Shown here: positions 9,704-23,084 of the stretch, in pieces
Layout: each line of letters starts with the position of its first letter
How positions within the stretch are numbered: position 1 is the stretch's first letter
Origin: Candidatus Thorarchaeota archaeon
Lineage (GTDB): Archaea > Asgardarchaeota > Thorarchaeia > Thorarchaeales > Thorarchaeaceae
DNA length: 64,000 nt
Assembly: GCA_029855935.1 (NCBI GenBank)
Contig: JAGSHN010000025.1
Coordinates: 96,001 to 160,000 of the forward strand
Direction of reading: 5' to 3'
The notes under the pieces: generated by a model
What the model saw: the letters and a program-made list of their open reading frames with translations, nothing else
The model's database searches: none
Told to the model about the DNA's origin: nothing
Made by a program: the position numbers and the translations under genes

Positions 9704-11554
9704 TTAAGTCTGAGTGCCACAGGCGTCCTCCTTGGGCACCAGTCCCTCTTGGATAAGCCACTCCCGCAGGGCACGCGCGGCCGCGGGTGTCATACCAGGC
9801 GTGTCGGCAAGGTCCTCGACAGAGGCCGTGCAGACAGCGTCCAAGCTGCCGAACTTGCGAAGAAGAGCAGCGCGTCGTTTCGGACCTATACCGGGAGCGT
9901 CCTCCAGAATCGAGCCTGTGAGGACTCGCTGACGGAGAGTGTGATAGTAGCGCTGAGCGAATCGGTGTGCCTCATCACGGACCCTCTGAATCAGTCTCAG
10001 GGCGGGTGATTCTGCCGGGAGGACTATCCCACCAGGCTGGTCCCGCGTGAACAGAATCTCCTCTCTCTTGGCAATGGACACGACAGGAAGGTAGTCTAGT
10101 CCTACGGAGGTAAGTGCCGAGAGAGCAGAGGAGAGCTGACCCTTGCCGCCATCAATCACAATGAGGTCTGGTAACGCCTCTCCAGCCTCAAGTACACTGC
10201 GATATCGTCTCCTGACGACCTCCCTCATCATCGCATAGTCGTCGGGTGTTTCCTTGGACCGAATCCTGAACATCCTGTATGACGTCTTGTCTGGAGCACC
10301 GTTGCGGAATACGACACACGAGCCAGCGGGAGTCGTCCCCTGAATGTTTGCTATGTCAAAGCCCTCTATGTGAAGTGGCGCCCTGTTCAGGCCCAGAACC
10401 TCGCGCAACTGCTTGACCCCCTCGTCCACGACCGGAGCCTTGCTGTCACCGAGAATGAGGATCTTATGAAGAGCCTGTACAGCGTTTGTGTTCGCCATCT
10501 CAATCAGGTCGAGGTCAGGACCAGTGTCAGGAGTCAGAAGGCGCATCCCGTGTGAACGTCCGTCTGAGAAGAGGTTCTCTAGCAGCTCGCGCTCCTCAAT
10601 GTCGATTGGGAGTAGTACCTCCTCAGGAAGCCGTGGTAGAGAGGAATAGTACTGTTTCACGAACGTTGTCAACAGCTCAGAATCGGTCACATCAAGGCCG
10701 ACATCGAACAGAAAGCTGTCCGTGCCTATCAAGCGGCCTCCACGGATAGTGAGGAGCTCTATCAGTGCCGCCTCCTCGGTGCGGGCAATGCCCACAATGT
10801 CCCGGTCGCGTCCCTCGATGTCGAAGACGCGTTGATGCCTAAGCAGTCGGACAATGTCGTCGATCCTGTCACGGAGCACTGCAGCCCTCTCGAACTCCAG
10901 ACGCGATGCAGCCTCCTCCATCTCTCCACGCAGTATCGAGAGAAGCTGTTCCTCTCGCCCCTCCAGAAAGAGAATCATCTCGTCGACCAGCCGGCGGTAC
11001 TCGTCCACACTAATGTGGCCGCGGCAGGGTCCGGCGCAGCGGCCGATGTGGAAGTCGATACACTCCCGTTGCTGAGAGGCCGGGTCACGACACATTGCAA
11101 CAGGGATGTAGCGGCGGAGGGTGTCGAGTGTCTTCTCCAATCGACGAATCGAGCCATATGGACCAAAGAACAGAGCGCCATCCGCGCCCTCAGTCTCGCG
11201 GGTAGCCACAAACGACGGTATGGGCGCCTTCGTGTCCACGCGGACCCAGACGTGACGCCTGTCGTCCTTCAGGGCGATGTTGTACTTGGGCTGATGCCTC
11301 TTGATGAGCGTGGCCTCCAGAATTAGCGCCTCTCGCTCGGTCGACGTGACTATCGTCTCCAGATCACGTGCCTCTGCCATCAGCTCCTGCATCCTTGCGT
11401 CCAGCCCGCGAGTCCGGAGGTACGAGGACACCCTCTTGCGCAGTGACTTGGCCTTCCCGACGTAGAGGACCTTGCCAGTTTCGCTCTTCCAGAGGTAGAC
11501 ACCAGGACGATCAGGAAGGTCCCTTACAAGGCGAGTGATGTCAGAGCCTGTCAC
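9704..11554 (-). CDS. uvrC: Excinuclease ABC subunit C
   Basis: GIY-YIG domain (PGVYL..LYVGKAKSLRKRV), Cys cluster, UVR domain, IEGFDI/DDYAMM/IDGGKGQ, HhH GIGPKRR. Confidence 0.97.
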   Translation of the reverse strand: MTGSDITRLVRDLPDRPGVYLWKSETGKVLYVGKAKSLRKRVSSYLRTRGLDARMQELMAEARDLETIVTSTEREALILEATLIKRHQPKYNIALKDDRRHVWVRVDTKAPIPSFVATRETEGADGALFFGPYGSIRRLEKTLDTLRRYIPVAMCRDPASQQRECIDFHIGRCAGPCRGHISVDEYRRLVDEMILFLEGREEQLLSILRGEMEEAASRLEFERAAVLRDRIDDIVRLLRHQRVFDIEGRDRDIVGIARTEEAALIELLTIRGGRLIGTDSFLFDVGLDVTDSELLTTFVKQYYSSLPRLPEEVLLPIDIEERELLENLFSDGRSHGMRLLTPDTGPDLDLIEMANTNAVQALHKILILGDSKAPVVDEGVKQLREVLGLNRAPLHIEGFDIANIQGTTPAGSCVVFRNGAPDKTSYRMFRIRSKETPDDYAMMREVVRRRYRSVLEAGEALPDLIVIDGGKGQLSSALSALTSVGLDYLPVVSIAKREEILFTRDQPGGIVLPAESPALRLIQRVRDEAHRFAQRYYHTLRQRVLTGSILEDAPGIGPKRRAALLRKFGSLDAVCTASVEDLADTPGMTPAAARALREWLIQEGLVPKEDACGTQT

Positions 11555-14421
11555 GTTGAGATCACCTCCCCCTCTGACCGAGCCCGAGGACTGTTCTCAA
11601 GTGCCTCTCGGAGAAAACGGCCAGTATGTGATCGACTCATTCGGGCAATGTCCTCGGGGGTGCCAATCGCCACGACCTCACCGCCCTCCTCGCCGCCCTC
11701 GGGGCCAAGGTCGATCACCCAGTCAGCAGTCTTGATGACCTCGATGTTGTGCTCGATGACGACCACGGTGTTGCCCCTTTCCACAAGGCGATTCAGGACC
11801 TTGAGCAGGACGTGAACATCCGAGGCCGACAGGCCCGTGGTCGGCTCGTCGAGGATGTAGAGCGTACGACCTTGCCCTCCGCGAGAGAGCTCGGCGGCGA
11901 GCTTCACGCGTTGAGCCTCACCTCCGGAGAGCGTTGTTGCAGGCTGGCCAAGCGTCAGATATCCAAGGCCCACATCAACGAGGGTTTGGAGCCTCCGTGC
12001 CACAGATGGTATGTCGCGGAAGAAGGCCAGTGCCTCGTCGATTGTCATGTCGAGGACCTCGGTGATGTTCTTGCCCTTGTAGGTCACCTCAAGGGTCTCC
12101 CTGTCGAACCGGCGGCCCTTGCACACGTCACAGGTGATGTGAACATCACTCATGAAGTGCATCTCGATGGTGAGAACACCACTGCCCTTGCACTTCTCGC
12201 ATCTCCCCTCACGGGTATTGAAACTGAACCGACCAGGGCCGAAGCCACGGACGCGGGCCTCTGGCGTCGCTGCAAAGAGCCTACGAATGTCATCGAAGAC
12301 CTTAGTATACGTGGCAGGATTCGACCGTGGAGTTCTACCTATGGGCGACTGATCCACCATCACAACGCGGTCTATGCGCTCCCAGCCTTCAATCGAGTCG
12401 TGGGCGCCCGGAATCACCGCCGCACGGTTGACAAGGCGCGCGAGAGCCTTGTAGAGAGTCTCATAGACAAGGGTGCTCTTTCCGCTGCCTGAAACACCCG
12501 TCACACATACAAGGAGACCGATCGGTATCTCCACAGTGATGTTCTTGAGATTGAACTGTCTTGCACCGCGCAGGACTATCTTCTCGCCATTGCCGCTCCT
12601 GCGCACGGTGGGAATGGGGATTCGACGCTCCCCTGCCAGATACTGGGCAGTGAGCGAACGTGGATGGGAGAGCACCTCCGATGGCGGCCCCTGAGCCACA
12701 ATCTCGCCACCGTGGATCCCCGCGCCAGGCCCGAGGTCGATGATATGGTCGGCCGCCATCACGGTGTCCCTGTCATGCTCTATGACAATCACCGTGTTGC
12801 CCAGCTCACGTAGTCGATAGAATGTTTCAATGAGGCGCCGGATGTCACGCGGATGAAGACCGACAGAGGGCTCATCGAGGCAATACAGGACCCCGGTCAG
12901 TGCAGAGCCAATCTGCGTGGCCAGACGTATTCTCTGGCTCTCGCCACCTGAGAGTGTCATCGACCTCCTGTCGAGAGTCAGATATCCGAGGCCAACGGAC
13001 TCGATGAATCTCAGTCGAGCGAGTATCTCCTTCAGAACGAGATGCGCTATCTTTCTCTCCCGGTCAGTGAGCTTGAGGCTCTCGAAGTGACGGAGCGCCT
13101 CTCGGATGGTCATCGAGGAGACCTCATCAATCGACTTGCCGCCCACGGTCACAGCCAGGCTCTCAAGACGAAGCTTTCGGCCACCGCAGGTGGGGCACGT
13201 CGTCGCGCTGGCGAACTTGCTCACTATCTTCTCGCGGTACCATTCAGCACTCGTGTCGCGCATATGACGACGGAGCCTTGGGACCATCCCCTCCCAAGTC
13301 CGCGTAACACGAACGGTCTCCCTACCACCTCTTCGTCCCACTGACTCGTACTCGAAGCTCACAGTGTAGCGGGGTCGGCCCCAGAGAATGACGTCCTTCG
13401 CCCTCTGAGGTAGGTCACGCCACGGCACATCCAGCGAGAAGCCAGCCTCTCTGCTCAGCGCCTCAAGGAAGCGCATAGGCCACGACTTGGGATTGCTGCT
13501 CCACGGTCGGAGAGCCCCCTCCCGGAGCGTCAGCGACTCGTCGGGAACTATCAGACGCGGGTCAATGTCGAACCTGACGCCCAAGCCATTGCAGTCCGGA
13601 CACGCGCCCTGTGGAGTGTTGTATGAGAACGCCTTGGGACCAAGATGTTCGTACTGAGCCCCACATCTAGGACAGATCATCTCCTCGCCGAAGACGAGGT
13701 CATCGTGTCCAGGCCGCACGACTATCGCGCGTCCGTTACCAGTCTCGAGCGCAGTCTCAAGAGATGATATGAGCCGCTCCCAGTTCCTCTCGCTGATCTC
13801 CAGACGGTCGACGACCACATCGATGTCATGGCGTCGCCGACCATCAAGTCGGATGCTCTCGATTGGAGTGACCTCTCCATCGACCCTGACACGGACGAAA
13901 CCATTCTCCAGCAGCCCCTGCAGCACCTCCGAGTGCGTACCCCTCTCGCCCCTGACAACGGGCGCAAGGACAAGGGCCCTCTCGCCGCCATTCTCCTTGA
14001 TCAGGAGCCGTGCTGCCGACTCAGGAGTGAGCTGCTGCATCTCCGTCCCGCACTTGACACAGTGAGGGATACCTATCGTGGCATAGAGGAGGCGAAGATA
14101 GTCGTGAATCTCAGTGCTGGTGGCGACTGTACTTCGAGGATTCTTGCTCCGTCCCTTCTGCTCGATGGATATCGCCGGTGGTATGCCCGTTATCTTCTCG
14201 ACACGAGGACGCTCCAGTCGGCCGAGAAAACGTCGGGCGTATGATGAGAGCGACTCGACGTACCTCCGTTGTCCCTCCGCGAAGATCGTGTCAAAGACAA
14301 GGGTGGACTTGCCCGAGCCAGAGGGACCCGTCACAACAACGAGTCTGTTGCGTGGAATGTCAAGCGTAACGGACTTGAGGTTGTGTTCTGATGCTCCCTC
14401 AATATGAATGACTCCGGTCAC
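11551..14421 (-). CDS. uvrA: Excinuclease ABC subunit A (downstream paralog)
   Basis: Two ABC modules ([16 protein letters not shown]; [16 protein letters not shown]), Zn fingers, [15 protein letters not shown]. Confidence 0.96.
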
Positions 14422-17390
14422 TCCTCCATCCCCCCTCTCTGACCGTCAATCTCCAAGACTCGCCTGAGAAACTGCCCCGTGTATGAGGCCGGGTTGTTCG
14501 CCACCTCCTCGGGAGTCCCCTCTGTAACGAGATACCCGCCCTCGTCACCGCCCTCTGGGCCCAGGTCGATTATCCAGTCGGCTGTCTTGATGACATCGAG
14601 ATTGTGCTCGATGACAAGGACCGTGTTTCCAAGGTCGACCAGACGATGGAGGACCTCGAGCAGTTTCTTCACGTCGGCGAAGTGAAGACCCGTTGTGGGC
14701 TCGTCGAGCAGAATTAGAGTCTGACCAGTGACAGGACGTGACAGGAATTTGCTGAGCTTGATTCTCTGTGCCTCGCCGCCGGACAGTGTCGTTGCCGGCT
14801 GGCCGAGCTTGACATAGCCCATTCCGACATCGACAAGTGTCTGAAGCCGCCGTCGAATTGGAGGGATGTCCTTGAAGAACTCGAGGGCCTCATCAATGCG
14901 CATCTCAAGGACGTCGGCGATGTTCTTTCCCTTATACCGCACTTGGAGCGTCTCACGATTATACCTCCGTCCCTTGCACTCCCCACAGGTCACCTGTACG
15001 GGTGGGAGAAACTGCATCTCTACAATCTCGACACCAGCACCCCGGCACTTCTCGCAGCGCCCGCCGCGCACATTGAAGCTGAATCGTCCCGGCTTGTAGC
15101 CTCTGATCTGCGCCTCCGGAAGGCTGGCGAAGAGCTGTCGGAGGGGTGTCCACAGGCCCACGTAGGTGGCTGGATTGGAACGAGGGGTGCGGCCGATGGG
15201 ACTCTGATCGATGACGATCACCTTGTCAAGCTGTTCCACGCCTATGATCTCATCGTGATCTCCTGGCGGGGACTCCGCACCGTGAAACCGCCTCGCCAGG
15301 GCCCTCTGCAGCGTCTCCACTATCAGACTGGACTTTCCGCTCCCTGAGACACCAGTGACACAGACGAAGAGGCCGAGTGGGATACGCACGTCGATGTTCT
15401 TGAGATTGTGATGTCGCGCACCTCGAATCTCTATGAAACGACCGTTCGGCTGCCGTCGTCTTCGTGGCACAGGAATCCGTTCCTCGCCCCGCAGGTAGCG
15501 GGCGGTGATGGAGTCGGGGCACTTCAGCACCTCGTCCAAGGTACCGGCAACCACCACCTTACCACCTTCTGCTCCCGCACCCGGCCCGAGGTCGACGACA
15601 TAGTCCGCTGAGCGGATTGTCGCCTCGTCGTGTTCCACGACAATGACTGTGTTGCCCAGATCGCGAAGACGCTTGAGAGCATTCAGCAGTCGCTGGTTAT
15701 CTCTTGCGTGCAGTCCAATGGAGGGCTCATCGCAGACATAGGTCACACCGACAAGGTTCGAGCCAATCTGGCTCGCCAGCCTGATCCTCTGAGCCTCACC
15801 CCCTGCGAGTGTGGGGGCAGACCTGTCCAAGGTGAGATAGTCGAGACCGACTGCACGGAGGAATTCGATGCGTCCCATTATCTCCCGAAGAATTGGCTCG
15901 GCCACTGGCTCCAGCCCGGCAGGTATCGTCGCAGAGCTGAGAAACTCATGGAGCTCGCGGACTGACATCCGGTTCAGCTCCACTATGGACTTGCCATTGA
16001 ACAGTACGGCCCGGGACTCTGGTCGAAGACGCGTACCGCCACACTCCGGACACGGATGCATCACCATGAAGCGCTCCAGCTTCCGCTTGACATACTCGGA
16101 GTCCGTCCGACGATAGTTGCGTCGCATCTTCGGGATGACGCCCTCCCATCGTCGTCGGGTGGTGCCCTCGACCACCATTGTGGCGGCACTGTTTCCCCAC
16201 CTCCAGTCAAGCTCGAACTCGTCGTCCGAACCGTACAGTACCACGCGCCGCTGTTCCTCTGTCAGATCACGCCAAGGTGTATGAAGAGAGAAACCGTGTC
16301 TCTCAGCCACCTTTCTGAGCAGAGGACTCCGACGGAGCCACCTGTACACCCCTATGGCGCCCTCGGAGATTGAGAGATTCGGGTTCACTACCACAAGCTC
16401 CGGATCAAAGTCAGGAATCGTCCCCAGTCCCGTGCATGTAGGGCAGGCACCGTGAGGTGTGTTCCACGAGAACAGCCTTGGCTCCAACTCTGGAAGACTG
16501 ATTCCACAGGTCGCACAGGCAAACTTCTCCGACAGTATCTGTTCTCCTCGCTCTGAGATTATCACGACAACACCGTCAGCCATCTTGAGGCTGGTCTCCA
16601 CAGCCTCGGACAGACGAGAACGATTGTTGGATGAGACACGGACCCTATCAACGACGACCTCAATTGTGTGCTCGTAGTATCGGTCGAGTGACATCCCCGG
16701 CTCAATCTCTCTCATCTCACCGTCGACGCGGACCCGGCTGAACCCCTTCCTCAGCAGCTCCTCGAACTCCCGTCGATACTCACCCTTCCTCCCGCGGACA
16801 ATCGGAGCAAGTATGCTAATGCGCTGACCATCCAGCGTCCTCAGAATGTGATCCACAATCTGCTGAGCAGTCTGGGGATGTATCTCCCTCCCGCACTTGG
16901 GGCAGTGAGGTGTTCCCACACGAGCATAGAGCAGCCTCAGAAAGTCGTAGATCTCGGTGATAGTGCCTACAGTACTGCGAGGATTGCGCCCTGCGCTCTT
17001 CTGGTCAATTGATATCGAGGGCGACAGGCCTGATATGTATTCGACTCGTGGCTTCTCCAACATACCCAAGAACTGTCTGGCATACGCTGAGAGCGACTCG
17101 AGGAACCTTCGCTGTCCCTCTGCATAGATTGTGTCGAAGACGAGGCTCGACTTGCCCGATCCTGACACCCCAGTCACGACGGTGAGCTTGTTGCGAGGTA
17201 TATCGATATCTATCTGTTTCAGCTTGTGTTCGTAGGCGCCAACCACCGAGATGACGCGTGGGCCTTCCTCGGTCTTGTCGCGGCCCGGCTCTGTCACAAT
17301 GTCCGAAACAGGCTCCGTCAAATCAGTACTTCCTCGAGTTTCGCCCATCAACCTCACCGGGAGTGTCCTGTTGCCTCTGGTCGAGCCCAT
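14418..17390 (-). CDS. uvrA: Excinuclease ABC subunit A (upstream paralog; the true start may be TTG 17321 or GTG 17297)
   Basis: GVSGSGKSS twice, LAGGE/LSGGE, DTIYAEGQRR, Zn fingers, DEPTTGLHF. Confidence 0.96.
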   Translation of the reverse strand: MGSTRGNRTLPVRLMGETRGSTDLTEPVSDIVTEPGRDKTEEGPRVISVVGAYEHKLKQIDIDIPRNKLTVVTGVSGSGKSSLVFDTIYAEGQRRFLESLSAYARQFLGMLEKPRVEYISGLSPSISIDQKSAGRNPRSTVGTITEIYDFLRLLYARVGTPHCPKCGREIHPQTAQQIVDHILRTLDGQRISILAPIVRGRKGEYRREFEELLRKGFSRVRVDGEMREIEPGMSLDRYYEHTIEVVVDRVRVSSNNRSRLSEAVETSLKMADGVVVIISERGEQILSEKFACATCGISLPELEPRLFSWNTPHGACPTCTGLGTIPDFDPELVVVNPNLSISEGAIGVYRWLRRSPLLRKVAERHGFSLHTPWRDLTEEQRRVVLYGSDDEFELDWRWGNSAATMVVEGTTRRRWEGVIPKMRRNYRRTDSEYVKRKLERFMVMHPCPECGGTRLRPESRAVLFNGKSIVELNRMSVRELHEFLSSATIPAGLEPVAEPILREIMGRIEFLRAVGLDYLTLDRSAPTLAGGEAQRIRLASQIGSNLVGVTYVCDEPSIGLHARDNQRLLNALKRLRDLGNTVIVVEHDEATIRSADYVVDLGPGAGAEGGKVVVAGTLDEVLKCPDSITARYLRGEERIPVPRRRRQPNGRFIEIRGARHHNLKNIDVRIPLGLFVCVTGVSGSGKSSLIVETLQRALARRFHGAESPPGDHDEIIGVEQLDKVIVIDQSPIGRTPRSNPATYVGLWTPLRQLFASLPEAQIRGYKPGRFSFNVRGGRCEKCRGAGVEIVEMQFLPPVQVTCGECKGRRYNRETLQVRYKGKNIADVLEMRIDEALEFFKDIPPIRRRLQTLVDVGMGYVKLGQPATTLSGGEAQRIKLSKFLSRPVTGQTLILLDEPTTGLHFADVKKLLEVLHRLVDLGNTVLVIEHNLDVIKTADWIIDLGPEGGDEGGYLVTEGTPEEVANNPASYTGQFLRRVLEIDGQRGGMEE

Positions 17391-17523
17391 CCCGGTGAAT
17401 CTTGTCTGACTCCTTCGGTGCAGAACGGAGCTGCCTCCATCAGGTTATGAAGTCTTCGCAATGAGCAGACGGAACCACCTGAGATTCTACGGAGATAGTT
17501 CACCGAAACGTGCAGAATGACTC

Positions 17524-19506
17524 TCAGGAGGGCTGTGGCATTCTCTTGCGGAGCTCTGCTATCCGGTCCCTGAGTTCTGCAGCACGCTCGAACTCTAGGC
17601 GCTGAGCCGCCTCCTTCATCTCTGCCTCAAGGTCGACAATCAGTCCCTCAAGGTCGGCAAGCTCATCAAGGTCTGCAGCCTCGGTACGGGTCCCCTTCTT
17701 ACCGCGGCGTGCAATCCCCTGAGCAATGTCTCGAATAGACTTCGAGATGGACTGTGGTGTTATCCCGTGGCGCTTGTTGAACTCAATCTGGTACTTGCGT
17801 CGCCGGTTCACCTCGTCAATGGCGGATCTCATCGCCTCAGAGATGTGGTCAGCGTACAATATCACGCGACCGTTGACGTTGCGCGCCGCGCGGCCCATCG
17901 TCTGAATCAGTGCCCAGTCTGTCCTCAGAAAGCCCTCCTTGTCAGCATCAAGGATTGCCACAAGGCCAACCTCGGGGATGTCAAGACCCTCTCGGAGGAG
18001 ATTGATCCCCACAAGGACATCGAACTTGCCCTGGCGGAGCTCTCTCACAATCTCGATGCGCTCCACAGTGCCGATGTCCGAGTGGAGGTATCTCGCAAGG
18101 ACACCGTTCTCAAGCAGATAGTCTGCGAGCATCTCGGCCGATTTCTTGGTGAGCGTTGTGACAAGCACCCGGTCGCCGCGCTCCTTCGCCCGCCGTATCT
18201 CACCGAGAAGATGGTCGATCTGTCCCTCGGTGGGATGAACAAACACCTCGGGGTCCACGATTCCAGTAGGACGGACGAGCTGCTCCACAGTCTGTGCGCT
18301 CACCCGCCGCTCGTACGGACCCGGTGTTGCACTTGTGAATATCACGTGACGCATATACTCCTCGAACTCGTCAAACGTGAGGGGCCGATTGTCAAATGCG
18401 GAGGGGAGCCTGAAACCAAAGTCGATCAGGTTCTGCTTTCGCGAACGGTCGCCGTGGTGCATACCGCGTATCTGGGGAATGGTCATATGACTCTCATCGA
18501 TTATCATCAGAAAGTCCTCGGGGAAGTAGTCAAGCAATGTGTATGGCCTCTCCCCGGGCCTTCTGCCATCAAAGTAGCGCGAATAGTTCTCAATGCCGGT
18601 GCAGTGGCCTGTCTCACGGAGCATCTCAAGATCGTAGAGCGTCCGTCTCCTGAGACGGTCGGCCTCCAAGAGCTTCCCCTGACTCCGAAACCACTCGACG
18701 CGCTCCTCCATCTCCTGACGAATCTCGTCAAGGACGCCTAGAACCCTCTCGTGACGCGTCACGTGGTGCTTTGCCGGATGGATGACCACCCAGCTGTCGT
18801 CGCGAATCCGATGTGACGCAACGGCATCAATGAGAGAGATGCGGTCGACCCTGTCCTCATCAAGCTCTATTCTGACCTTGTTGCGCGAATACGCAGGATG
18901 AACCTCTATCACATCACCACGAACGCGGAATAGCCCAGGGCCTACCTCTATGTCATTTCGCTCGTACTGCATCGCAACAAGTCGTTCCAGAATCTCACGC
19001 CGCCGTATGGTCTGGCCGACCTCAAGATAGAGGGACATCTCCTCGTAGTCCGCGGGATTGCCGACACTGTATATGCACGAGACCGAGGCCACCACAATGA
19101 CATCGTCACGTGTGCGTAACGAACGCGTAGTGGAGTGGCGAAGACGCTCAATCTCCGTGTTGATGTCAGTCTCCTTCTCTATGTACATGTCCTTGGAGGG
19201 GACATACGCCTCCGGCTGATAGTAGTCATAGTAGGACACATAGTACTCAACGGCGTTCTCCGGAAAGAACTGACGATACTCTGAGGCAAGCTGGGCTGCG
19301 AGAGTCTTGTTGTGAGAGATCACCAGTGTGGGTCGACCGTAGTGGGCTATCACATTGGCCATTGTGAAGGTCTTCCCAGAACCAGTCACGCCGAGCAATG
19401 TCTGAAACCTGAGTCCTGAGTCTAGTCCCTCACACAGCTGGGCTATGGCCTGCGGTTGATCGCCTGTCGGTTCAAATGGTGCCTCAAGTCGGAACTGTGC
19501 CAACAC
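17524..19506 (-). CDS. uvrB: Excinuclease ABC subunit B
   Basis: PTGDQP, GVTGSGKT, YYDYYQPEAY, DESH, C-terminal UVR domain. Confidence 0.98.
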   Translation of the reverse strand: MLAQFRLEAPFEPTGDQPQAIAQLCEGLDSGLRFQTLLGVTGSGKTFTMANVIAHYGRPTLVISHNKTLAAQLASEYRQFFPENAVEYYVSYYDYYQPEAYVPSKDMYIEKETDINTEIERLRHSTTRSLRTRDDVIVVASVSCIYSVGNPADYEEMSLYLEVGQTIRRREILERLVAMQYERNDIEVGPGLFRVRGDVIEVHPAYSRNKVRIELDEDRVDRISLIDAVASHRIRDDSWVVIHPAKHHVTRHERVLGVLDEIRQEMEERVEWFRSQGKLLEADRLRRRTLYDLEMLRETGHCTGIENYSRYFDGRRPGERPYTLLDYFPEDFLMIIDESHMTIPQIRGMHHGDRSRKQNLIDFGFRLPSAFDNRPLTFDEFEEYMRHVIFTSATPGPYERRVSAQTVEQLVRPTGIVDPEVFVHPTEGQIDHLLGEIRRAKERGDRVLVTTLTKKSAEMLADYLLENGVLARYLHSDIGTVERIEIVRELRQGKFDVLVGINLLREGLDIPEVGLVAILDADKEGFLRTDWALIQTMGRAARNVNGRVILYADHISEAMRSAIDEVNRRRKYQIEFNKRHGITPQSISKSIRDIAQGIARRGKKGTRTEAADLDELADLEGLIVDLEAEMKEAAQRLEFERAAELRDRIAELRKRMPQPS

Positions 19507-19757
19507 TACGAGCCTCTGGCACAGGTCTTGTTGGGAGAGCTCCTAACCTTTTCGATGGCCGCATAGACAGCGGCACACAGAGAGATTTCCTCCATTGGAA
19601 GATACCAATCGACGGGCACGGCAGATATGCCTGATCGACGAAACTCACACTGAGAAGACCATAGTGACTCGAACGATTTTCGGAGATTATGGCTCGCCGA
19701 TTTTTATCTTGCCGAGAGAACAACAGCATCATCCTGTCTAACAGGAGAGGTGTCGTG

Positions 19758-20963
19758 ATGCGTAGAAGGAGAGTTATGGTCACACTGTTTGTTCTCGCGA
19801 CAATGCTGGCGCTGACCGTGTTCGTCCCGTCACCAGCGACCGCAACATCATCTGGCTCGGGTGGGACAAACAGCGTCAGTCACGTGGGACTCCTACCGGG
19901 AGACATCATCCTCGGAGAGAACCCGGGGACCAAAAGCAGCAAGCTCGTCCCTGGCAAATACAGCCACGCAATGATGTACTGCGGTGTAGTCCGATCAGGG
20001 GAGAAATACTGGGATCGGACAAATGGTCGCTGGCTGGCGGTGGGTGAGCCGTACATCATCCATTCGACTCCTGATGATGACGATTCGAAAGACGGCCTTG
20101 GATACGACTCGTGGTACACACGCGTTAACGGAGGATATGAGAACCTGCTCGTACTCCGAGTAATGAAGAGCGGCGGAGTACCACTGACAGACAGCGAGAG
20201 ATCTCAAGTTGTCAACTTTCTCCGCAGCAAGCTAAGTGGTGGCAAGGATGGCTACCCCGTCGGGCCCAAGTACGACTACAACTGGCTCAGGAAGGGCGTT
20301 AATCCGCCCTACTACTGCTCGGAGGCAGTCTGGGCGGCCTACAAGTCAGTTCTGGGTATCGACCTTGACGCCGATACATCACCATTCAATATCGGTGTGT
20401 CCCCTGATGACCTGTGGCACTCCCAATACACTTCAGTCATCGCCGGAGAAGACGGGTCATCTCGTTGGAGTGCCAGATATGGCGTCTGTAAGGTGTCAGT
20501 CTACGTGTACAAGATCCACTACAAGGAAGACAAGGATCCGTGGCTAAAGGGCGCAGGCGAAATGTACCTGAAGAGTTTCACGGGCGACAGCCAGTATCCC
20601 ACAGAGGAAGGGTATCCGGGGTGTGGCAAGATTGGCCGGACACCGGATGGCACATGGCCGAGGAATGGAGCTGGCGATCTCTACTGGAGAAAAGACTTCT
20701 ATTCATTCGTCAACTATTACAGATACCTGAAGATTCGCATTGAGGCGTGGGAAGACGACAGCACGGACGGTGATGACCAATTCGACCCCTACCAGATAGT
20801 CTGGTCACCAACCACGTGGCACTCAAAGATTGGTGCTGGCTATCAGTACTATCCAGCCTCAAAGAGCGATTGCATCTACTACATCTACATACGAATTACT
20901 TGGGCCTATGATCCAGTAGGTGGAGGAGGGGGCGGCGGAGGAGGCACGCCGGTCGTAAGATAG
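19758..20963 (+). CDS. Secreted permuted papain-like NlpC/P60 (YiiX/YebB-like) protein with C2-like C-terminal domain
   Basis: Signal peptide; PGDIIL, YSHA (His) precedes YYCSEAVWAAY (Cys), VSPDDL; C-terminal DKD...EAWEDDSTDGDD; Gly9 tail. Confidence 0.78.
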   Translation: MRRRRVMVTLFVLATMLALTVFVPSPATATSSGSGGTNSVSHVGLLPGDIILGENPGTKSSKLVPGKYSHAMMYCGVVRSGEKYWDRTNGRWLAVGEPYIIHSTPDDDDSKDGLGYDSWYTRVNGGYENLLVLRVMKSGGVPLTDSERSQVVNFLRSKLSGGKDGYPVGPKYDYNWLRKGVNPPYYCSEAVWAAYKSVLGIDLDADTSPFNIGVSPDDLWHSQYTSVIAGEDGSSRWSARYGVCKVSVYVYKIHYKEDKDPWLKGAGEMYLKSFTGDSQYPTEEGYPGCGKIGRTPDGTWPRNGAGDLYWRKDFYSFVNYYRYLKIRIEAWEDDSTDGDDQFDPYQIVWSPTTWHSKIGAGYQYYPASKSDCIYYIYIRITWAYDPVGGGGGGGGGTPVVR

Positions 20964-21167: not shown

Positions 21168-23084
21168 GTGGCCAAGATCAGAATCGCATACGTCGAGACC
21201 CTCGGAAGGTCAAGACACTACGAAGTCCCGGACAATGCCGCCGTAGTCAGTCTGGCTGAGCGGCACATAGAGCAGGTCAACCTCACGCCACTGAGCAGTC
21301 TCACCAGTCTACGGAGCCTCAGTCTGTATAGGAACAGGATAGTTGCTCTGAACCTTGAGCCACTGGCCTCCTGCAAGAAACTTGTCCGACTAGATCTTGC
21401 CCAGAACCGCCTCAAGGCGCTCGACCTCTCACCCGTTGCTTCACTCCACAACCTACGGGAACTACGCATCGAGAGCAACCTCCTTGAGAGGATAGATCTG
21501 TCGCCTCTCGGCTCCTGTCAGAGATTGACAGTTCTCGACATCAGCACCAACAGACTGAGAGAGATTGATCTCTCTCCTCTGGCCAGGTGCACCAGCCTCC
21601 GGGAGATTCGTCTTGCGGGCAACAAGATCCAGCGCATTGACCTCTCACCTCTTGCGCGACTGGCTAATCTCAGAGTGATCGACCTCTCCGGGAACGAACT
21701 ACAACTCATCGAGCTGTCTCCACTCAGCGATTGCAGAGGACTACTCGAACTCGGTCTGTCAAAGAACAGGCTGCGCATGCTGGATCTCAGCCCTCTTGAC
21801 TTCCACGACAGAATCAGAGAGCTGGATGTGTCGGGCAACAGGCTGACTCGTCTGATCCTACCGTGCTCAAGCGGGCTCCGCATCCTCGTCGCAAGTGACT
21901 GTGGTCTGACGCGTATCGACCTCACTCCGCTGGGAGTCGGAAGAGGCCTTGAGACTCTCGACCTGAGCAAGAATCGTCTGTCGGAGATTGACTTGAGACC
22001 ACTGTCGAACTGTCCGAACTTCAGGTCATTGGTACTCTCCTCCAACATCCTGACCGAGGTGGACCTTAGACCCTTGAGCGACTGCCCGCAGACGAGCCTG
22101 GTGTCCCTCGACGGCAACTCGATTGAGAGGCTTGACCTCTCCCCATTGAGTGGACTCAAGAGGCTCAGGACACTCTCTCTTGATGGCAATGACCTGCCCG
22201 ACATAGATCTCAGCCCCCTTGCCAGTTGCACGGGTCTTCGTGTTCTGACTCTAGACAAGGTGGGTGCAAGGCAGCTGGATGTCCTGCCGTTGTTCTGCTG
22301 CAGAGACTTGGAAGACCTTGTTGTGGCGAGGAGAAGCAGGCTGAAGACTATATACACGCCTGTGTTCGTGGACTGGCCCGTAGGTCTGGCGCAGAAGAGG
22401 AAACGAATCGAGGTAGTAGAGAAACTGAGACTCAGGACGGGCGAGTGGTCCCGACTGGCCAGGCACGCCATCGCCTTCTGCAGGAACATCGGGGATGACG
22501 CTGAACGTCTCTCATTTCAGGCGACGCTTCTTCGGCTAACTGGCAATGGCGATCTCGTGGCGCTCGACATCAATCTCGTGCCTATCCTCTTGACGACGGA
22601 GGGGCTCAACTCGATGCAGGAGATCACGAACGCACTGCGCGAACATCTCTTGGTGGCTCTTCACGAGCAGGTCGAGAGGGGAGGACCTACCCACTTTGTG
22701 GCTGTGGAACGTCTTGAGGAGAGCCCCACAACAAGATCACTGGCTGAGAGCGTGAAACGCGCACGAGGGGAGGAGATGGAAACCGCCTACGTGTTGGCAA
22801 GGGATGATACTGTTGACTTGAGACCCCTGTGGCTCACCTACATCGGTTTCAGGAGGCTAAGAACTATGAATGTCGGTCTAGAGGTCGAAAAGGGTAGTCT
22901 CGGACCGATAGTCGAGGCCTTCCGCAAGATGGGCTATGACCTCAGAGTGCTTGACCGACCTGACCCGCAGGCCCTGCCAAGGATGTCTGCCGGAATGAGA
23001 CGATTCCTGATATGGGCTGTTGAACGTCAGACCGCTGATGAGGACGCAAACGGGCGCCCTACGAGGGATGAGGACACCCGCTGA
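21168..23084 (+). CDS. Leucine-rich repeat protein
   Basis: About 16 copies of the 22-aa unit LxxLxLxxNxLxxIDLSPLxxC, plus a helical C-terminal region. Confidence 0.92.
   Translation: MAKIRIAYVETLGRSRHYEVPDNAAVVSLAERHIEQVNLTPLSSLTSLRSLSLYRNRIVALNLEPLASCKKLVRLDLAQNRLKALDLSPVASLHNLRELRIESNLLERIDLSPLGSCQRLTVLDISTNRLREIDLSPLARCTSLREIRLAGNKIQRIDLSPLARLANLRVIDLSGNELQLIELSPLSDCRGLLELGLSKNRLRMLDLSPLDFHDRIRELDVSGNRLTRLILPCSSGLRILVASDCGLTRIDLTPLGVGRGLETLDLSKNRLSEIDLRPLSNCPNFRSLVLSSNILTEVDLRPLSDCPQTSLVSLDGNSIERLDLSPLSGLKRLRTLSLDGNDLPDIDLSPLASCTGLRVLTLDKVGARQLDVLPLFCCRDLEDLVVARRSRLKTIYTPVFVDWPVGLAQKRKRIEVVEKLRLRTGEWSRLARHAIAFCRNIGDDAERLSFQATLLRLTGNGDLVALDINLVPILLTTEGLNSMQEITNALREHLLVALHEQVERGGPTHFVAVERLEESPTTRSLAESVKRARGEEMETAYVLARDDTVDLRPLWLTYIGFRRLRTMNVGLEVEKGSLGPIVEAFRKMGYDLRVLDRPDPQALPRMSAGMRRFLIWAVERQTADEDANGRPTRDEDTR

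Follow-up and report, generated by a model that had tools for sequence, protein, structure and literature searches.

Class I UvrA, the damage sensor that loads UvrB in nucleotide excision repair, is known as a homodimer of one gene product. On a lesion, the protomers of M. tuberculosis UvrA have been distinguished as "recognition" and "support" protomers, and how the symmetric UvrA2B2 complex gives way to a pre-incision complex that is asymmetric and has a single UvrB on the damaged strand is named in the same work as an unsolved question (PMC11985968). Class II UvrA proteins are without the UvrB-binding domain and the first zinc module, are usually unlinked to uvrB and uvrC, and act outside nucleotide excision repair (PMC9328131). 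Two uvrA genes fused into one have been reported in Planctomycetes, and the fused protein is produced in a planctomycete (PMC8567305). Here we analyze a locus in a 64,000-nucleotide stretch of a Candidatus Thorarchaeota genome (contig JAGSHN010000025.1, positions 96,001 to 160,000; hereafter the window), in which two complete but diverged uvrA genes, uvrA-up and uvrA-dn, lie between uvrB and uvrC. An earlier note on this DNA, made from the sequence alone, had proposed that the two products form an undescribed heterodimeric sensor with specialised ATPase sites. In our analysis a heterodimer is the best reading of the pair, one that we hold with moderate confidence, and it would add a new, two-gene form to the known fused double-length UvrA; the specialised ATPase sites do not survive comparison with related sequences.

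Two coupled uvrA genes in one repair operon

The four genes constitute one nucleotide excision repair operon, in which two paralogous genes for class I UvrA encode the damage sensor. Its components, in the order of transcription and in window coordinates, are as follows.

17524-19506, minus strand: uvrB, the first gene of the operon; 660 aa; UvrB equivalog NF003673, 1014 bits (cut-off 743); Pfam UvrB_inter, Helicase_C, UvrB and UVR
17391-17523, minus strand: spacer of 133 nt between uvrB and the longest uvrA-up open reading frame
14418-17390, minus strand: uvrA-up, a complete class I UvrA of the "N-half type" clade; 990 aa; NF001503, 1417 bits (cut-off 1147)
14418-14421, minus strand: overlap GTGA of uvrA-up and uvrA-dn, comprising the uvrA-up stop and the uvrA-dn GTG start; junction sequence GGAGGAGTGACC
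11551-14421, minus strand: uvrA-dn, the more derived partner, likewise a complete class I UvrA; 956 aa; NF001503, 1369 bits (cut-off 1147)
11551-11554, minus strand: overlap GTGA of uvrA-dn and uvrC, comprising the uvrA-dn stop and the uvrC GTG start; junction sequence GGAGGTGATCTCAACGTGACA
9704-11554, minus strand: uvrC, the last gene of the operon; 616 aa; TIGR00194, 526 bits (cut-off 285); Pfam GIY-YIG, UVR, UvrC_RNaseH, UvrC_RNaseH_dom and HHH

The gene order uvrB-uvrA-uvrA-uvrC, which the earlier note had described with these same coordinates, is thus borne out by four minus-strand open reading frames whose identities were assigned with NCBIfam equivalog models. The two 4-nt overlaps that it had reported are both GTGA, and a GGAGG-like motif lies immediately 5′ of each. 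The start of uvrA-up is uncertain by 14 codons. Homology to UvrA begins at codon 46 of the longest open reading frame, preceded by about 45 residues; the ATG at 17390 has no Shine-Dalgarno (SD)-like motif upstream, while an in-frame ATG at 17348 has GGTGAGG 4 nt upstream and is plausibly the true start. The genome (2.97 Mb, 97% complete) contains this pair as its only UvrA genes.

The tandem is conserved across Thorarchaeota

The closest database proteins to the two UvrA are named Candidatus Thorarchaeota, in agreement with the archaeal, Asgard host suggested earlier. In a set of 60 relatives, almost all genomes from the same family (16 genera) have two full-length UvrA matches side by side and on the same strand, as does the one genome that represents a second family of the order. 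We fetched 23 Thorarchaeota loci, covering the 16 genera of the one family and one locus from the second family, and found the UvrA tandem in the same gene order in all of them. Wherever the fetched stretch extended far enough, uvrB lay upstream and uvrC downstream, with a single exception that had no uvrB-sized open reading frame upstream. The junction between the two uvrA genes is an ATGA or GTGA overlap at 18 of the 23 loci and TAATG at three more, giving a 4-nt or 1-nt overlap at 21 of 23, and at these conserved junctions an SD-like GGAGG is embedded in the 3′ end of uvrA-up.

In a phylum-wide survey of 400 genomes, UvrA matches were found in 69 of the 85 genomes of the family, nearly all of which had two. 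Five genomes that appeared suspiciously to carry a single copy were searched again: in three a gene is cut at a contig end, in one a full uvrA-up is followed by a uvrA-dn cut at a contig end, and one has no match. Contig-end truncation or absence of the operon therefore explains all five, and no genome retaining one copy without the other was found among the 23 loci and the re-searched Thorarchaeota genomes. The occurrence of the tandem across Thorarchaeota genera and in the phylum survey rules out a strain-specific arrangement, and the pair can safely be said, from these sequences, to predate the diversification of Thorarchaeota.

Four genomes of the same family that are 90-93% complete (G364, G369, G371 and G031) have no UvrA match whatever, and some Thorarchaeota lineages may manage without the whole uvr operon, or it may have escaped binning there. 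In one further Thorarchaeota genome the upstream UvrA (G035:C4:346681-349437) contains an in-frame TGA, and for the downstream copy the match is confined to model positions 2-806; this could reflect a sequencing error, a pseudogene or recoding.

Both copies are complete class I UvrA proteins under strong constraint

The earlier description of the two copies as complete yet diverged is upheld by NCBIfam, Pfam, motif and zinc-cysteine checks; they are 54% identical over 947 residues. With TIGR00630, uvrA-up scores 1361 bits and uvrA-dn 1305 bits against a cut-off of 730. The UvrB-binding domain (Pfam UvrA_inter) is present in both (124 bits in uvrA-up, 97 bits in uvrA-dn), as is a full-length insertion domain (Pfam UvrA_DNA-bind; 88.5 and 103.8 bits, respectively), and uvrA-dn aligns over its whole length with the G. 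stearothermophilus UvrA chain 2r6f. Neither copy shows the class II pattern, since the UvrB-binding domain and the first zinc module are retained in each.

Across 24 uvrA-up and 23 uvrA-dn sequences, the Walker A lysine, the Walker B Asp-Glu pair, the signature and the H-loop histidine are intact in both ATPase modules, the sole deviations being S or A in signature I of uvrA-up and a proline before SGSGKS in uvrA-dn. All 12 cysteines of the three zinc modules are invariant (23/23 for each copy). R216 and E222, E. coli UvrA residues whose mutation disrupts the UvrB interaction surface (PMC3025350), were mapped onto the Thorarchaeota copies through the 2r6f alignment: R216 is conserved in 24/24 uvrA-up and 23/23 uvrA-dn sequences, and E222 in 23/24 and 22/23. 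Compared domain by domain, conservation within the uvrA-up clade and within the uvrA-dn clade is alike. Ratios of nonsynonymous to synonymous substitution (dN/dS) between close genome pairs are 0.046, 0.050 and 0.021 for uvrA-up and 0.033 and 0.067 for uvrA-dn, and purifying selection on both genes is strong. Relaxed selection on one copy, which the earlier note had named as a finding that would count against its proposal, was looked for and is ruled out by these values (0.02-0.07). By every sequence test applied, both copies appear to be working genes.

These data bear directly on the idea that one copy is decaying or serves a purely regulatory purpose, for example as a dominant-negative or ATPase-dead partner. 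uvrA-dn would be the candidate, being the more derived copy by the number of fixed changes (13 versus 4, see below) and by the greater distance of its UvrB-binding and insertion domains from the canonical ones. Yet its dN/dS is 0.03-0.07, it scores above the UvrA equivalog cut-off, and 22-23 of 23 genomes retain its Walker A, Walker B, signature and H-loop residues, its zinc cysteines and its R216/E222; on this evidence a decaying or ATPase-dead copy is effectively excluded.

The same completeness lends itself to a different explanation, in which two separate homodimers, one of each product, feed a single UvrB and UvrC and differ in lesion range or DNA context, the gene overlap merely securing co-expression. 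Both proteins keep the features of an autonomous class I UvrA (motifs, zinc modules, UvrB-contact and interface residues), and other Asgard genomes have extra, unlinked UvrA genes, so paralogs with separate roles do exist. Independent sensors would not need adjacency and overlap, however, and these are kept across the family and at the second-family locus; nor was solitary loss of either copy found among the loci and re-checked genomes. We consider two homodimers an unlikely explanation of the tandem, and return below to two further observations that bear on it.

uvrA-up is kin to the N halves of fused double UvrA

A search of a library of representatives at 50% identity returned, among its best 150 hits, mostly double or multi-module UvrA proteins of about 1600-1960 aa, and fused double UvrA is accordingly a common form. 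The search was ranked by summed bits, so that fusions were returned over the nearest single-length relatives, and canonical outgroups were taken from a second search. The double proteins have several architectures: two full units, a full unit and a half without the insertion domain, and double forms without the UvrB-binding domain. Among the fused double UvrA, named examples belong to Heimdallarchaeaceae, Chloroflexota and Planctomycetota. In addition to Heimdallarchaeaceae, a second family of Asgard archaea has a fused double UvrA of 1972-1975 aa (L076 G138:C52, L077 G135:C39), whose C half is far less diverged than that of the Heimdallarchaeaceae protein.

The Thorarchaeota pair is distinct from these fusions in form. 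The two copies score only 731 and 723 bits with NF001885, the model of fused double UvrA, against a cut-off of 3054, and in place of the single polypeptide of about 1800-1950 aa that characterises the PRK00635 type there are two open reading frames with a stop codon and a GTGA overlap. The complex had been called undescribed in the earlier note. For the unfused pair, neither a UvrA heterodimer nor a two-gene class I UvrA pair was found in the literature searched (PMC6300522 has nothing on UvrA classes except Deinococcus UvrA2); the word has to be qualified for double UvrA as such, which is annotated in its fused form (NCBIfam PRK00635) and has been reported in Planctomycetes (PMC8567305).

Five trees were built, with FastTree including and excluding canonical outgroups and with IQ-TREE (LG+C20) on three samplings. 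uvrA-up and uvrA-dn are each monophyletic with support of 98-100, and their internal branching is largely congruent. Whether the copies form two old orthologous clades had been put forward earlier as a check; the Asgard survey and these trees indicate that the tandem is ancient and that they do. In four of the five trees uvrA-up is sister to the N halves of the fusions from other Asgard families, Chloroflexota and Planctomycetota (support 99, 98, 98 and 94), and the fifth tree pairs it with just the N half from Heimdallarchaeaceae (support 96). Every UvrA of the uvrA-up type in the sample examined is followed directly by a second, downstream UvrA, either fused to it or overlapping. That the closest relatives of uvrA-up are always covalently joined to a second UvrA is a further observation that two independent homodimers would leave without explanation.

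The placement of uvrA-dn shifts with sampling. Two trees place it outside the canonical group, alongside other partner copies on long branches, and another places it inside that group, adjoining the single UvrA of another Asgard family. By the approximately unbiased (AU) test, one Thorarchaeota clade comprising both uvrA-up and uvrA-dn is not rejected (p=0.18, delta lnL 12.2). We therefore do not adopt a simple "split fusion" in which both halves are orthologous to those of the fused proteins: the trees support this for uvrA-up alone, the position of uvrA-dn depends on sampling, and the AU test is not decisive.

The ATPase motifs do not mark specialised sites

The substitutions from which specialised ATPase sites had been proposed are all present in this genome (LAGGE and VCDEPS in uvrA-up, GPSGSGKST and GLSASD in uvrA-dn), and it is their interpretation that fails. 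LAGGE in signature I is not a trait of the uvrA-up clade, as this position varies between A and S among uvrA-up sequences. VCDEPS, with Cys replacing Leu, is fixed in uvrA-up, and GPSGSGKS is fixed in uvrA-dn; neither affects a catalytic residue. GL(S/A)ASD in the position of GLH is likewise fixed in uvrA-dn, but S or A replaces this GLH histidine in some single-copy Asgard UvrA too, as well as in fusion N halves, so that the change is no mark of a specialised site. With Walker A, Walker B, signature and H-loop intact in both clades, and with the substitutions either variable or shared with single-copy UvrA, we find no support for specialised or degenerate ATPase sites and reject them.

Several fixed differences of uvrA-dn lie where the protomers meet

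We next considered the differences outside the ATPase sites. As a reference we used 329 alignment columns, each conserved at 90% or more in 27 canonical single-copy UvrA from Asgard archaea, Firmicutes and Nitrososphaerales. Fixed changes at these columns number 4 in uvrA-up and 13 in uvrA-dn, with 1 in both. Those of uvrA-dn include Q64R in the wedge, S81P at the interface, and L757M and P758S at the tip of the C-terminal zinc hairpin. These positions were read against the equivalent residues in a cryo-electron microscopy study of UvrA, in which Q65, together with Y62 and F66, is inserted in the centre of the duplex, S82 lies within a contact loop of the dimer interface, and, at the zinc-finger hairpin tip, F755 stacks on its twin from the other protomer (PMC12796330). 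The changes at 757 and 758 adjoin this stacking phenylalanine, and among the fixed changes of uvrA-dn are elements that this study places on the two-fold axis. Because the wedge, contact-loop and hairpin-tip positions match these residues, several of the fixed changes in uvrA-dn are located where the two protomers meet over the lesion. The UvrB-binding and insertion domains of uvrA-dn are also farther from canonical than those of uvrA-up. The C halves of fusions are often altered at two of the same positions, S81 and P758, which would fit a common "partner" role for uvrA-dn and the fusion C halves; convergence is equally possible.

Part of this pattern could also be accommodated by two homodimers, as the wedge and hairpin-tip changes might tune the lesion specificity of a uvrA-dn homodimer. 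It bears as well on free mixing, in which the two homodimers and the heterodimer would all form and work because the interface is conserved, and duplication followed by mild divergence would have widened the substrate range with no obligate partner. The interface residues are nearly identical between the copies, the fixed changes affect only 4 and 13 of the 329 columns, and a duplication specific to Thorarchaeota is not rejected (AU p=0.18). Free mixing leaves unexplained, however, that among the loci and genomes examined no solitary loss of either copy was found and that the uvrA-up type clade otherwise occurs only fused to a partner, and the equally strong constraint on both copies suggests non-redundant roles. 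We judge it improbable, to about the same degree as two separate homodimers.

A putative UvrA heterodimer

Taken together, the conserved coupling of the two genes and the kinship of uvrA-up with the N halves of fused double UvrA fit a heterodimer of the two products. Several points weigh against it. Each copy appears to have everything that a self-sufficient UvrA requires, and the remaining dimer-interface residues are unchanged in both, so that we see no obstacle to homodimers of either product. Gene coupling would be evidence of co-expression, not of assembly. uvrA-dn is not clearly orthologous to the fusion C halves, and the outcome of the AU test weakens the "split fusion" argument.

With these points in mind, we infer the following course of events. 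As uvrA-dn starts within the stop codon of uvrA-up, the two proteins are probably made together and in roughly equal amounts. They would most likely assemble mainly as a heterodimer through the conserved interface of ATP-binding domain I, each protomer contributing a pair of working ATPase sites and three zinc modules along with an insertion domain and a UvrB-binding domain. Since both protomers keep all of the canonical parts, the complex is expected to act like canonical UvrA2B2; from what is known of the family, it would scan DNA and load UvrB, after which UvrC would cut. The complex would carry a fixed asymmetry outside its ATPase sites, with the arginine wedge, the proline contact loop and the Met-Ser hairpin tip of the uvrA-dn product placed where the protomers meet over the lesion.

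A more speculative extension, and in our view a distinctly doubtful one, is that the heterodimer makes permanent a division of labour reached by homodimeric UvrA only transiently, on a lesion, the uvrA-dn product probing the distorted site in one fixed geometry and thereby biasing which UvrB loads first. If so, the pair would be a natural asymmetric sensor with separately mutable protomers.

The protomers of a homodimer cannot be mutated separately. A separately encoded pair of complete UvrA proteins would permit this, and inactivation of one ATPase site, UvrB-binding domain, wedge or hairpin in a single protomer would become possible. The tandem may thus offer a natural handle on the protomer asymmetry raised in the M. 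tuberculosis work (PMC11985968). It also takes "double UvrA" beyond a curiosity of gene fusion to a widespread state, with a two-gene form conserved across an Asgard lineage of order level.

Surroundings of the operon and other UvrA in Asgard genomes

The operon is flanked on the opposite strand by an amino-acid permease and a 424-aa open reading frame, and with its neighbours on the other strand the four uvr genes form a self-contained unit. The features upstream of uvrB are the following.

19689-20963, plus strand: 424-aa open reading frame, no Pfam match
21168-23084, plus strand: 638-aa leucine-rich-repeat protein, beyond the 424-aa frame

Two other kinds of UvrA were observed in Asgard genomes. 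In some Thorarchaeota genera and another Asgard family there is a third full-length UvrA, which is unlinked, is about 950-980 aa long and scores about 1070-1115 bits (L058 G008:C5:70500-76200, L059, L060, L061 and L079). It forms its own clade, its wedge residues Y62/Q65/F66 are replaced by T/T/M, and at the UvrB-contact position Arg216 it has glutamine; this third protein probably serves as a sensor in another role. In addition, frames of about 1620-1650 aa with two UvrA-like units, both without the UvrB-binding domain, represent a double class II-like fusion. These occur in several Thorarchaeota and other Asgard genomes (G008:C5:58985-63019, G013:C17, G018:C21, G026:C121, G028:C1:2686489-2690523 and G120:C1:3574257-3578453), and none was found in the genome from which the window comes.

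Comparison with known systems

The canonical class I UvrA homodimer (G. stearothermophilus 2r6f and 3uwx, T. maritima 3pih, M. tuberculosis 3zqj and the 9gxk series) shares its domain plan with both Thorarchaeota copies, namely two ABC modules, three zinc modules, a UvrB-binding domain and an insertion domain, and its interface and UvrB-contact residues are conserved in them as well. The Thorarchaeota system differs in having two diverged, coupled genes (54% identity) rather than one, and in the substitutions fixed in uvrA-dn, which replace Q by R in the wedge, replace S by P in the contact loop and alter the zinc-hairpin tip.

Class II UvrA (D. radiodurans UvrA2 2vf7, DrrC and Ecm16) resembles the present case in being a second UvrA paralog within one genome. 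A more distant likeness is to heterodimeric ABC proteins, such as the heterodimeric ABC exporters with one degenerate ATP site, in which side-by-side paralogs arose from a homodimeric ABC ancestor. Unlike those exporters, the Thorarchaeota UvrA have no degenerate ATP site, and all four sites of the presumed dimer keep the consensus catalytic residues.

The closest resemblance is to the fused double UvrA of the PRK00635 type, including the 1917-1975 aa proteins of Heimdallarchaeaceae and the second Asgard family, in which two unlike units are co-produced in a fixed order, as in Thorarchaeota. In Thorarchaeota each unit is a polypeptide of its own, the first gene ending in a stop codon and overlapping the second by 4 nt, and both units are complete, whereas many fusions are without a domain in one half. 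By this analogy, and with the same moderate confidence that we attach to the heterodimer, the tandem would be the two-gene, unfused counterpart of a known but biochemically unstudied fused double UvrA.

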